Shown here: positions 2,390-55,337 of the stretch, one piece after another
Numbering within the stretch: position 1 is the stretch's first letter
How the letters are laid out: every line of letters starts with the position of its first letter
From: Octopus vulgaris
Taxonomy: Eukaryota
Reading direction: 5' to 3'
DNA: 64,000 bases
Assembly (NCBI GenBank): GCA_951406725.2
Contig: OX597816.1
Coordinates: 182,356,137 to 182,420,136 of the forward strand
Notes under the pieces: generated by a model
What the model was told of the DNA's origin: nothing
The model's database searches: none
The model's input: only the letters and a program-made list of their open reading frames with translations
Position numbers and translations under genes: made by a program

Positions 2390-3465
2390 GTATTGTTTCT
2401 ACATATATATTAGGAAAAACCTACAAACTTTGTTTTCATGTTATTGTATTGCATAAGATTACCTTGATTATTTATATTACCTTGATTATTTATAAATGAC
2501 CCAAAATAGGATGTTATATTTTATTTTATAGGTCTTTCGTATATATTTTTATTAATGCACCCATTTTTTAAAAGCAATGTTTTTCTATAAAAAAAGCAAT
2601 GTTGTCAAATTTAGAATGTTTATATAAGTTTGTGTATAGCAAAGCATATGTATTTGTAAGCATGCGTATCTGTGTATGTGTGAGTGAAAGTATGCTTGTG
2701 CTTAAGCACACATATACACGACGGTATGTATATGTATCAATTCAAACTTGTGTATGTATACAGGCCTCTATAGATGCCAAATAACATCGCTACAATTTTT
2801 TCCCCACCCCTCCTCCGTTCCTTTTTCTCTCTTTCCCTTTCTTTCGTTCCCCCTCCTTGCTCAGTATATGAGAATTGCTACATAGATGAATTTTAGCTTG
2901 CGTGCGAGACGGTTTGCGTGAATATATGTACACATGCTTTTATGTGTATAATTTAGATTCATATTCATACGTCTGTATATGTATGTATGGCGTTTACGCG
3001 CATCCTTTTGTGTATGTTGATATATATATGTGGATTTTAATATAAATATGTATTGCAGTATTTATAACAGGTTTAATTTCTATGCATTAATTTGTACTGT
3101 CTTCATTAACGGCAACAGGTTTTTTCCTCGGTATTTTCCTCGGATTTTATAATTTTTATAAGTTTTTATATATATATACATATATTTTTGACCTTTTTGT
3201 TTATCGCTCGAAGATTGACCGTTTTTTCTAAAGGGCCAATCAAACAAGTCCATTTCTTTTTAAAGGTGTAGCGTTTGTAAGAGTATAGATTGAATTAATA
3301 TATATGTTCCATTCTAGCAAAAACTGTCTGATGAACGGCAACGAGAAACTCAGAGTAACAGATTTTGTTGATTTTTCTGCTGCTTAAAATAAAGCATATT
3401 ACTCTACCACTGGTATTTGAGTACTCTTTTTTCCACCTTGTTTCACATTTATGTGTTTACTCCGG
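2390..3465 (+). mobile_element. Non-coding AT-rich segment, probably the 3' tail of a Penelope-like element or retrozyme
   Basis: No ORF. It carries an HHR motif at 3324-3361, about 108 nt before the (TA)n junction, the same layout as the coding PLEs in this window. Confidence 0.55.
3324..3361 (+). ncRNA. Minimal type I hammerhead ribozyme motif
   Basis: ctgt-CTGATGA-a.cg.gcaa.cg.a-GAAA-ctc.a.gag-TA-acag. Stem I is ctgt/acag, the core is canonical, stem III is near-palindromic and the cleavage triplet is GUA. Stem II is weak (A.A at the first pair). Confidence 0.75.
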
Positions 3466-3650
3466 TATATATATATATATATATATATATATATATATGT
3501 ATATATATATATATGTATATATATATATATATATATATATATATATATATATATATATATATATATATATATATATATATATATATATATATATATATAT
3601 ATATATATATATATATATATATATATATATATATATATGTATATATATAT

Positions 3651-5424
3651 AGCTGTAGTGGTGTGGCGCGCGGACCTCTATAGGGCCGAGACTTTCCGCC
3701 AACTCAATGACACCTCCTTCTATTCCCCTCTGCCCTCTAACCCCACACGTAGCTACCAACAGACGGTATCCTCTACTGTCCGCGACCTCGTCTCGTCCTC
3801 CCGTCTCCCCTGCACCGCATCCAACCTACTTGTGCGAACCCCACGTACCCCCACCATTTACTTCCTCCCCCAAATCCACAAACCCAACAACCCTGGCCGC
3901 CCCATCGTCTCCGCCTGTAACTGCCCCACGGAGCTCATCTCTAAATACCTCGACCGTGTCCTTGCCCCCTAGTGGCATCTCTTCCCTCCCACATCCACGA
4001 TACCAACCATGCTCTCCGGCTTTTCAACTCTTTCTTCTTTCCTCCCGGCTCCTCCAAAATCCTTTTTACTATGGACATCCAAAGCCTCTATACTGTTATC
4101 CCTCACCACGAAGGACTGCAGGCCCTTCGACACTTTCTTGACCTCCGCTCTAACCCTGTACCTGACACCTCCACACTCATTCGTCTGGCCGAACTTGTCC
4201 TTACTCTGAACTGCTTCTCGTTCGCGGGCGAGTTCTACCATCAGGTCTCGGGAGTGGCCATGGGAACGCGAATGGGCCCCAACTATGCGAACCTGTTCGT
4301 TGGCTATGTTGAGTCCCAAATATTCTCTAATTTCACTGGTCCCACTCCTGAACTATATGGTCGTTACATTGACGACATTATCGGTGCCACCTCACTCTCC
4401 CGCGAACATCTAGATTCCTTCCTCTCTTTCGTCCAATCTTTCCATCCAGCCCTCCACTTCACTTCCACTATCTCCAACACCTCTGTCTCCTTCCTCGACA
4501 TTTCGGTTAGCATTCTTCACTCCACTCTTACCACCTCCATTCACTACAAACACACAGACTCACACTCATACCTCAACTTCTCTTCCTCCCACCCAGAACA
4601 CACCAAGCTTTCCATCCCCTATTCCCAATTCCTCCGTCTACGTAGGCTCTGTAGTGACGACCATGACTTTGAGACTCGGTCTCAACGTATGGCTCACCAC
4701 TTCACCCTACGTGGATACCCCCTCACCACTATCCACACCGCCCTTGCCAGAGCACGGTCCGTGGACCGTGTATCTGCTCTCTCTCCCCGAACCCGCCCTG
4801 TAGTCTCCCGCCTCCCTTTTCCCCTCACTTACCACCCCCACGACCCTACGTCTCCAACGCACCATTCTTCGAGCTTTCCGTCATCTCCAGTCCGACCCGT
4901 CCACTTCACACCTCTTCCCTAACCGACCCCTCCCCTCTTTCAAACGAGCCCACAACCTTCGAGACCTTTTGGTCCATAGCTCCTTCCCTGACCCTACCTC
5001 CCAACCCGGCTCGTTCCCCTGCTCCCGCCAACGTTGCCGCACTTGCCCTTACCTCTCCAACACCACCCGCCTCACTAGCACCCACCATCGACCCTATCCC
5101 ATCATCCACTCCTTCACCTGCACCTCCAGCAATATTATCTATTGCGTCTCTTGCTCTCTCTGCAATTCCTTGTACATCGGACAAACGGGACGCCGCTTGG
5201 CTGACCGGTTCGCGGAACACCTTCGTGACATCCACCTTGCGAACGACACACCGGTCTCACGCCATTTCCGCTCCACCGGTCACTCCTTGCAACACCTATC
5301 TGTGTTCGGTTTGTCCTTACACAGAGGCCATCCGGATTCCCGTTTGCGCCGTGAACAGGAATTAATCTTCTCTCTTCGCTCTTATACGCCATTTGGTCTC
5401 AACTCTTCCCCCCTCCTCATCTAA
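3651..5424 (+). pseudogene. PLE RT/GIY-YIG ORF, frameshifted
   Basis: ORFs 3451-3972, 3972-4922 and 4969-5424 are consecutive pieces of the protein seen at 24669-26700. Confidence 0.9.
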
Positions 5425-53107: not shown

Positions 53108-54817
53108 CACTTGCGTCGGAAATTAATTAGCACTTCTCAAATTTCTACATTTTCTTACATTTTCTTAATTTAATTAACTTATTATCAGAAACGAACTCGT
53201 TTTTAATCAAAAATTTATTAAAACATATCCCAGCACACCACATAATTGTTATTAATCGTGAAATTTAGTCAATATCTTGTTGCTCCTCCTTTGGCAGCAA
53301 TGACAGCTGCTACGCGGGTCAGCATGCTGTCTATGAGTGCCTGCAGGTACTCTGCAGGGATGGCCCCCCATGCAGCAAGAAGTGCCCCAAACAGCTCGTG
53401 TGGGTTCCTGTATTGTTGCACATTCAAATCCCTACCCAATCGACTCCAGAGGTTCTCAATAGGGTTCAGGTCTGGTTACTGGCCAAGCCAGTCCATGACC
53501 GTCACCCCATGGTCCTTGAAGAAACCGGTTGTGAGCTTGTCTGTGTGGGAAGGCGCATTGTCCTGCTGGAGCAGTACTCCTCGCCATCAAAGAGGTATCC
53601 CGTACTATCTCAACGTACTTTGCTGCGTTGATGTTGCCTTCGACGACATAGAGCCGCCCAACACCACTGTAGCTGAACGCCCCTCACACCATCAGACCAC
53701 CCTCACCTTGCTTCATGGTGGGAGCAATGCAGTCTTTGTTGAAGCGCTCACCCCTGCGGCGTCGCACATGGACAGGCTTGTCACTGACGAGACTGAAACG
53801 CGACTCGTCAGTGAACATCACTGTCCGCCACTGCTGCACGGTCCATGTCTTGTGGGGACAGGCCCAGAGCAGCCGCCTCTTCCGGTTTTGGGCTGTAAGG
53901 AGCGGCTTACGGGTGGCCCTACAGGATTTTAGACCAGCTTCCAGTAATCTGGTCTTGACGGTGGTTGTAGACAACTGCTTCCCTGTCATCTTTTGCATCT
54001 CCTCCACCAGTTGCCGGCTCGTTACCCTTCGGTTGTACAGTGACTTTCGGATCAGCATCCGGTCCTCCCGCTGGGTCGTCAGCCTCTTCCTTCCCCTACC
54101 CTTTTTGTCAGCTGCTGATCCGGTTTCGTCGTATTTCTTAAATAAGCACTGAATTGTGCGCCTGGCTACACCAAGTTTTCTGGCTATTGCAACCTCCGAC
54201 AGCTTCCCACGCCACGAGAGAGCCTCGTACCGTCTCTCCAAGGTCATGCGAGGTCTTGGGCCCATCTAGGAATGAACGATAAAAACCAGTTATTTTCATT
54301 AAAACTATTCATTTGAATAATGTTATGCTATAACAAAACTGCTATGAGTTATTATTCATTAAACAAAAAAGAAAGAAGGCAGAATTTCTCACCTTATTTG
54401 ATGTATAAGAGAAAGTTTTGTGAACCGGAAGTAACGTCACCAAGCAGAGTGTAGGAGAATTTGTGAGGAAAAAAAATCTTGCAAATACACAAATCAATTA
54501 ACCTACAAGCTGTTCAAAACGTCTTACGCGATGAGAAAACTTAGTACGGTGTGATTTCGGTCCTTGCGAGGCGCTACCTATATCTATTAAACAAAGGAAG
54601 ATTTGTCTGCATCCGCACTCCAAGTTGTTGTTGCACTGCTATGTCAACATCATTAGGCTGTAGACTCTCAAACCGCTCTGCAAACAAAGTTACGTCATCG
54701 TTCTCCGCAACAGTGAACTCGCAACAAAGCAATAGTTCGAGATATGGCCACTAGGTGACAGCAAATAACTTGAGTGAAGAGCAAATCAAGGGTGCTAATT
54801 AATTTCTGACGGTAGCG
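53108..54817 (-). mobile_element. Full-length defective Tc1 (DD34E) transposon
   Basis: 26-bp TIRs at 53108-53133 and 54792-54817 (4 mismatches), with TA on both sides. The transposase starts at ATG 54265 with HTH, GRGRKRLT and FTDESRF, and has premature stops at LMV*G and Q*PDLNPIE. Confidence 0.95.
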
Positions 54818-54997
54818 TATATATATATGTATATATATATATATATATGTATATATATATATATATATATGTATATATATATATATGTATATATATATAT
54901 ATATGTATATATATATGTATATATGTATATATGTATATATGTATATATGTATGTATATATGTATATATATATGTATATATATATATATGTATATATA

Positions 54998-55337
54998 CGT
55001 TTAAATATTTGTTGTGCAAGATTTTTTATGTGAAGTCGTGTGTTGAAATAGATATTGTTATATTTCGGAATGGTCATATTGCCAGTTTAGCCAATAAAAA
55101 CACACGCACTATATATTTGGTGTTATTTTGCTTCAGTGATATTTATTTTTTACATTAATCTTAATCTTATTTCGGCCAAAGTTCTTTCGTCACACTCCTG
55201 TGACCGCATCAGTGGTCCTTTGTTTTCTTCTCACTTATTTGTGTCTCTCCTTACTAACCGTCAGCACATAGAGATATAAGCATGCACAAATGAAGACATG
55301 CAATAGAAATACAAAATGGCTGACGGTTAGTAAGGAG
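54998..55337 (-). mobile_element. Non-coding fragment with a hammerhead-like motif and a terminal 19-bp inversion, probably a PLE/retrozyme tail
   Basis: Minus 55215-55176: cca-CTGATGC-g-gtcaca.ggag.tgtgac-GAAA-gaac-TT-tgg. Inverted repeat at 55247-55265 / 55319-55337. Confidence 0.5.

Follow-up and report, generated by a model that had tools for sequence, protein, structure and literature searches.

Why do hammerhead ribozyme motifs in different mobile elements of an octopus lie a short, set distance upstream of TA microsatellites? The question arises from the terminal 64 kb of contig OX597816.1 of Octopus vulgaris (positions 182,356,137 to 182,420,136; hereafter the window), in a genome of 2.8 Gb, where stacked mobile elements have 22 TA-type arrays between them, making up 17.9% of the window. 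An earlier note, made from these letters alone, described seven unrelated families with a hammerhead, a short tail and then (TA)n. It proposed that proteins of Penelope-like elements (PLEs), with reverse transcriptase (RT) and GIY-YIG domains, recognize a module near the hammerhead and prime reverse transcription in TA microsatellites, and that retrozymes parasitize this process. We refer to the families as A, B, C, P1 and P2 (PLEs) and R1 and R2 (retrozyme-like). We consider it highly probable that PLE 3′ ends and retrozymes alike sit at family-fixed sites in (TA)n, the retrozymes likely having been copied by a PLE-type enzyme that starts inside the RNA.

Fixed 3′ ends at TA arrays

Six of the seven families were picked up by a relaxed descriptor of type I hammerheads, with cuts where they had been proposed (Table 1). 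The descriptor missed family C, whose core reads CUGAUGC (A9C) beside an imperfect stem I; read by eye, this hammerhead has its junction at 181 nt. The distances from cut to (TA)n in the earlier note were reproduced exactly or within 1–2 nt: 108 nt for A, 103 nt for both P1 copies (104 in the note), 111 nt for B, 147 nt to the array edge and 165 nt to the first perfect (TA)5 for P2, 129 nt for R1 (cut at 50039, plus strand; 131 in the note) and, for R2, 141 nt to the array edge or 151 nt to perfect TA on the plus arm and 269 nt (271 in the note) on the minus arm. The three internal hammerheads of R1 sit 634–1620 nt from TA, and its left terminal unit has GACA in place of GAAA. Among the 150 of 272 Rfam matches listed there was no hammerhead; those matches were microsatellite-driven, almost all to microRNA models.

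Copies elsewhere in the genome were located by exact sequence patterns, which matched 3935 times for A, 3162 for P1, 448 for P2, 3106 for C, 767 for R1 and 339 for R2. Family B was located by DNA search instead: its exact pattern found only 4 copies because the window copy bears a rare variant, and the search returned 1973 candidates, of which 40 were scored. Scoring covered the first 30 loci for each pattern, 29 loci of B and a further 20 R2 regions picked from the listing; one internal P2 unit, 12 internal R1 units, the internal R2 units and the window B copy were dropped before TA scoring. A (TA)5 run lay within 280 nt past the cut in 30/30 copies of A, 28/29 of B, 24/30 of C, 28/30 of P1, 29/29 of P2 and 18/18 of R1, and at 31 of 32 R2 array ends (with a 285-nt limit). 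These figures far exceed the background, which is 17% for positions across the window and 15.6% over forty 10-kb genome stretches at even spacing (400 kb); the hammerhead-to-(TA)n distances thus do not match random expectation. Junctions with (TA)n were exact to a few bases in genome copies, and the claim that 3′ ends are fixed and joined to (TA)n was borne out in all seven families.

Hammerheads found de novo in the 400 kb had TA within 280 nt in 8 of 16 hits, against 0/6 for a decoy. Seventeen further hammerheads in the fetched loci, with both flanks available, had TA downstream in 15 cases and upstream in 7; one of the 17 is an A variant, and their flanks are TA-enriched. The upstream control is uninformative for A, where an internal (TA)6 and the shortness of the inverted arms put TA upstream in 30/30 copies. 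Background, decoy and per-family counts reject chance as the cause of TA joining.

The hammerheads themselves vary in other respects. P1 carries the core CUGUUGA (A6U) in the window and in 30/30 other copies; this core in P1 and CUGAUGC in C are non-canonical family-wide, with about 3000 matches each. As conserved core positions are changed, self-cleavage of the P1 and C hammerheads appears doubtful from their sequences. Stem II regions are unusually long in R1 (68 nt; 49949–50039) and B (51 nt; 15584–15653). At least eight more hammerhead families were seen (L255, L236, L242, L178, L105, L014, L087, L199, L103 and L240), several with U3-A8 cores; that of L255 is an inverted pair whose ends fall at 135 and 226 nt.

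Five coding families and two retrozymes

The earlier note had taken only P1 and P2 to be coding. Longer genome copies of A, B and C also carry coding open reading frames (ORFs), and the label ‘non-coding’ was dropped for these families: their window copies are 5′-truncated 3′ ends of coding elements, leaving R1 and R2 alone as non-coding. Single ORFs with RT and C-terminal GIY-YIG parts (YxDD and GIY-YIG motifs) run to 727 amino acids in A (locus L215), 1312 in C (locus L218), 1119 in P1 and 753 in P2, and to 665 plus a C-terminal piece in B; uninterrupted copies were seen for A, C and P1. BLASTP connects all five proteins, with C distant, and gives 30% identity between A and B over 648 columns (E = 9e-87) and 29% between P1 and P2 over 694. 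The seven families are thus unrelated at the DNA level (best pairwise BLASTN match 18 nt, E = 0.007) but not at the protein level, where A is related to B and P1 to P2.

The A protein has RWK, DKT and YRDD motifs and a CxCx5C linker preceding GIY-YIG, and the B protein has RWT, DKT and CxCx5C; by motifs and BLASTP, both match the Hydra type of PLE. P1 and P2 class as Neptune-type by DKG, BLASTP and a Cx4CxxC linker, an instance of the Neptune-type Cx2-5CxxC. Family C, with YVDD, a Cx4CxxC linker and GIY-YIG, has no recognizable DKG; its linker is common to Neptune and Nematis, making it Neptune/Nematis-like with its clade unsettled. Rather than seven separate inventions, the families are therefore five PLEs, drawn from two or three lineages, and two retrozymes. 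An ESM Atlas look-up for A, which we treat as a lead only, returned unnamed clusters of about 700 amino acids with PF26215 on 25–38% of members and GIY-YIG lower down.

Hammerhead-bearing pseudo-long terminal repeats (pLTRs) occur in tandem and partial-tandem copies: at L215, L217, L218, L221, L222, L226 and L321 the repeats run into the 5′ region or ORF. An inverted 5′-truncated arm with a one-sided tail is present in A, B, C and P2. Many A insertions (L033–L059) are fold-backs of about 200–250 nt that look like miniature inverted-repeat transposable elements but are PLE stubs; the inversion point falls inside the hammerhead or immediately 5′ of it, frequently at a CTAG palindrome.

R1 and R2 have units of 488 and 481 nt, a G+C content of 37% and 33%, and longest ATG-initiated ORFs of 26 and 29 amino acids. 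Their tandem spacing, with one type I hammerhead per unit, fits the description of retrozymes that lack long terminal repeats. The 5′ ends of their arrays fall at many points of the unit, giving no indication of the cut site, and the R2 unit was found in no RNA run among the sequencing runs listed. Copying in trans by a Penelope-type RT/GIY-YIG enzyme is likely for both. The earlier suggestion that they parasitize PLEs held in that R1 and R2 bear PLE-type insertion marks, detailed below, but not as a sequence link to the five PLEs. P1, which that note proposed as a possible helper, is a poor candidate because it has a single 3′ end and no inverted partners (0/30 within 1.5 kb), unlike R1 and R2.

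Two start sites, paired arms and their possible origin

All families but P1 have two fixed 3′ ends, which we term proximal and distal. They lie 37 and 108 nt past the cut in A, 37 and 111 in B, about 96 and 144 in P2, 123 and 181 in C, about 129 and 230 in R1, and about 152 and 271 in R2, so that fixed junctions fall 37–272 nt past the hammerhead across families. In tandem copies, which contain internal repeats, the element sequence runs on beyond both sites; the junctions are therefore internal to the transcript and not the end of the RNA. The stretch between the two sites is the PLE tail.

Inverted insertions combine the two sites in a regular way. Of 66 with both ends visible, tallied by hand, 58 had one proximal and one distal end, 1 had the same site twice and 7 were off-site. 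For retrozyme inversions the figures were 23, 1 and 4 of 28. Four of four B pairs, additional to the 66, followed the same one-long, one-short pairing. The longer arm of R2 may be on either side, as two independent complementary DNAs (cDNAs) would predict. The pairing rule suggests that both ends of the broken DNA act as primers. We regard it as somewhat more probable than its negation that a dimeric enzyme carries out twin priming on broken palindromic (TA)n, each end starting at a different fixed RNA site so that any inverted insertion acquires exactly one long and one short end, and that it does so for retrozymes too. If so, the retrozyme pairing (23/24 on-site) would amount to footprint-level genomic proof of PLE mobilization by a structural, rather than a sequence, signal.

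On the preferred reading, a PLE-type RT/GIY-YIG enzyme likely cuts pre-existing TA microsatellites, its zinc-finger-like linker and GIY-YIG domain presumably choosing (TA)n, and begins reverse transcription within the RNA. Both 3′-OH ends of the self-complementary TA break would prime on uncut RNA, one per site, with as many as 8 nt of UA pairing to assist, and joining of the free ends of the two cDNAs would give a head-to-head inversion; retrozymes likely borrow such an enzyme. The head-to-head joint of A copies often sits at a short palindrome immediately 5′ to the hammerhead. TA microhomology of at least 2 nt was present at 9 of 13 junctions (range 0–8 nt; chance 21%), which, as a sequence pattern, suggests short primer–template pairing.

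Whether TA joining belongs to hammerhead elements in particular, as the earlier note implied, could be judged from a long interspersed element (LINE) of the apurinic endonuclease (APE) type, at whose 3′ end the type I descriptor found no hammerhead. This family, with 2467 exact 3′ motif matches and an (ATCA)n or (AAAATC)n tail, had (TA)5 no more than 60 nt from its end in 22 of the 30 copies examined (L185–L214; background 3.8% at 50 nt), and this rules out hammerhead-specific TA targeting. Nor does ribozyme cutting appear to define the template: of 30 A arms selected with a pattern lying past the cut, 28 continue 5′ across that cut and not one begins at it, and catalytic hammerhead mutants of the green anole element Poseidon_Ac insert unchanged in vitro (PMC11167929). 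The hammerhead marks the module and is probably not a targeting signal; hammerhead and junction are neighbours since one terminal repeat contains both.

An alternative that keeps a positive role for the hammerhead, and is the stronger form of the earlier proposal, is that its fold is itself the recognition signal or ruler, with the PLE protein binding it and initiating reverse transcription at a defined distance beyond; retrozymes would retain it for that purpose. The near-identical geometry of A and B (37/108 and 37/111) despite no detectable DNA similarity keeps this idea alive; retention of the altered P1 and C cores in thousands of copies would fit a binding role, and the anole hammerhead cleaves only when its protein is present (PMC11167929). 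The spread of distances between families argues the other way, as do the catalytic mutants that leave insertion intact, the continued activity of a template running from ORF +20 and lacking the first core strand (PMC11167929), and the Naiads, which have no canonical hammerheads yet prefer (TA)n (PMC8557442). We judge this ruler role unlikely. A different reading does away with the PLE enzyme: retrozymes might have been moved by TA-preferring LINEs, or amplified at the DNA level, and accumulated in TA arrays. The LINE counts above are compatible with this, the Tc1-like and short interspersed element (SINE)-like copies of the window also adjoin TA, and long R2 arrays could expand by unequal exchange. 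R1 and R2, however, have no (ATCA)n tail and have two fixed internal ends with frequent head-to-head arms, and a single inverted pair (L213/L214) was seen among 30 LINE loci; we find this origin very improbable.

Slightly less credible still is that (TA)n is a product of insertion, added or expanded by the telomerase-related RT from a short internal template. In its favour, TA is present at nearly all 3′ ends, and one junction each of P1 and R2 has 7–8 nt of alternating TA. Yet the randomly truncated 5′ ends of P1 adjoin TA as well (16 of 27 copies with a visible 5′ end; background 3.1%; these 5′ classes are automatic; one or two are doubtful, and several ‘other’ calls reflect an alignment that broke in low-complexity sequence). 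Junctions with (TAA)n, (TACA)n or (TAGA)n replace those with TA at a few 3′ ends (C at L157 and L176; B at L267), the A proximal site has no TA microhomology, and different families meet tail to tail over one array (L117, L215 and L219). TA at truncated P1 ends and the occasional use of other AT-rich microsatellites favour insertion into existing arrays, which may have expanded afterwards.

Some observations weigh against the preferred reading, in which a PLE-type enzyme inserts both kinds of element into pre-existing TA arrays. P1 has one 3′ site only, at 103 nt, and no inversions; the window R1 array, with two proximal ends, is the sole same-site case. R1 and R2 lack significant DNA similarity to the five PLEs of the window, the only families compared (best match 25 nt, E = 0.012; no helper identified among them), and their tails measure about 100–120 nt, against 47–74 nt in A, B, P2 and C. 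No structure common to the tails emerged from minimum free energy (MFE) folds, and BLASTN and MFE folds found no shared sequence or fold among the 3′ modules of the families. No empty, pre-insertion site was seen, which leaves the pre-existing target as something we infer, and the microhomology at the junctions contrasts with the non-homologous start published for the anole element. In C, 6/30 ends have no nearby TA, and some hammerhead hits are distant from TA (3584 nt at L308). The sampled loci are mostly the first 30 matches along one contig, an insertion with two arms enters the counts twice, and B was sampled through the best matches to a query that contains the distal tail. As for the proteins, Pfam RVT_1 passes for P1 and P2 only, GIY-YIG falls below the cut-off and A, B and C give no Pfam hit; the clade assignments come from motifs and BLASTP.

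The window and known systems

The positions of the elements are collected in Table 1. Two more LINE copies, ending at 13151 and 61069, likewise join (TA)n via their tails. A Tc1-like transposase element (45463–46215) and its 99% identical inverted partial copy (53108–54817) flank the block of TA, R1 and R2. A 15-bp satellite in alternating orientations occupies 13702–14828 and 41260–45469, interspersed with short pieces of the element at 9954–10412. A SINE-like element of 314 nt (37045–37358) has TA on both sides and a putative tRNA-like head. The window lies at the very end of its contig (182420136); its location may be subtelomeric, which could account for the dense TA arrays and insertions.

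Table 1 Elements and hammerhead cuts in the window (positions from its first letter; + distances in nt past the cut)
Feature	Positions	Strand	Hammerhead, junction and flanks
Family A, 5′-truncated 3′ end of a coding PLE matching the Hydra type	2391–3465	+	Minimal core at 3328, cut after 3357; ends at distal site (+108)
(TA)n between A 3′ end and P1 5′ end	3466–3651		
P1 copy 1, 5′-truncated PLE classed as Neptune-type; RT and GIY-YIG in broken frames	3652–6219	+	Core CUGUUGA at 6089, cut after 6116; single 3′ site (+103); (TA)n 6220–6364
Family B, truncated 3′ end of a second coding PLE matching the Hydra type	15473–16527	−	Long stem II, core 15653, cut 15584; distal site (+111); (TA)n 15079–15472
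P1 copy 2, near full length	23299–27666	+	Core 27536, cut after 27563; TA flanks 22836–23298 and 27667–27728
P2, 5′-truncated PLE classed as Neptune-type	33417–35755	+	U3-A8 core at 35578, cut after 35608; distal site (+147); TA on both sides
APE-RT LINE without hammerhead (control, outside the system)	37431–41047	−	(ATCA)n tail joins (TA)n
R1, non-coding retrozyme-like array, head to head; 3.5 minus and 1.4 plus units of about 488–495 nt	47760–50168		Cuts 50039+, 49380−, 48889−, 48394−; both ends at proximal site
R2, non-coding, retrozyme-like, head-to-head arms; unit about 481 nt	50665–51543		Cuts 50934− (distal end, +269) and 51392+ (proximal end, +141/151)
Family C, terminal repeat of a coding PLE with short inverted partner fragment	54998–55337	−	Variant core (A9C), cut 55179; distal site (+181); (TA)n 54818–54997

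Much of this is already published: hammerheads in PLE repeats, the one-sided tail, two internal RT starts, the preference for (TA)n and the derivation of retrozymes from PLEs. PLE hammerheads in terminal repeats, with U3-A8 cores and opposite-strand motif pairs, have been described (PMC4209133), as have inverted pLTRs with a tail on one arm (PMC3846280, PMC8557442). The hammerheads here share with those minimal forms a palindromic or minimal stem III, an extra base before stem II and, in P2, the U3-A8 covariation; the A6U core of P1 and the A9C core of C are not named in the consulted text of PMC4209133.

The Hydra clade is reported to insert in (TA)n (PMC8557442). A and B resemble it in DKT, the CxCx5C linker and (TA)n targets, with RWK in A and RWT in B; B differs by a long asparagine-rich stretch and its 51-nt stem II region, and both are new families of this genome. 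In Neptune PLEs a microsatellite bias has been attributed to the linker, a proposed sensor (PMC8557442). P1 and P2 share with these elements DKG and the Cx4CxxC linker before GIY-YIG, and C shares the linker; P1 differs in having no tail, no inversions and an A6U core, and C in lacking DKG and having a 1312-amino-acid ORF and an A9C core.

The closest mechanistic parallel is Poseidon_Ac, whose protein, predicted to form dimers, cuts and extends both DNA strands, and whose tail is bounded in vitro by two internal RT starts downstream of the hammerhead (PMC11167929). As in the families here, RT starts follow the hammerhead within about 100 nt, with uncut RNA as template. Poseidon_Ac targets an ATT motif in AT-rich DNA, whereas these families target (TA)n, and its starts are non-homologous to the target; the pairing of long and short ends, counted here, is not quantified in the consulted text of that paper.

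PLEs have been proposed as mobilizers and ancestors of metazoan retrozymes (PMC7229834), a link backed by co-occurrence and pLTR homology (10.64898/2026.07.22.740005), and non-autonomous PLE derivatives are known from Chlamys (PMC8557442). R1 and R2 are like metazoan retrozymes in being built of low-GC, non-coding units in tandem, every unit having a single type I hammerhead, and their units of about 480–490 nt exceed the 150–450 bp given in PMC7229834. Where the published case rests on co-occurrence and pLTR homology, that made here rests on an insertion footprint, with no homology to the terminal repeats of the five PLEs; the main text of 10.64898/2026.07.22.740005 contains neither ‘tail’ nor ‘insertion site’ (0 occurrences). 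Neither the pairing rule nor the retrozyme insertion footprint was found in a literature search that left subscription papers, Repbase reports, figures and supplements largely outside. The addition made here is modest: R1 and R2 bear the full PLE insertion footprint, and inverted insertions follow the one-long, one-short rule.

The architecture itself would be no surprise to a PLE specialist. TA microsatellites emerge as a landing zone common to PLEs, retrozymes and a LINE in this genome, and the families offer a natural test set for two questions, the origin of inverted, tailed PLE insertions and the copying of retrozymes: the five coding families and the two passengers have precisely mapped start sites and could be paired in vitro.

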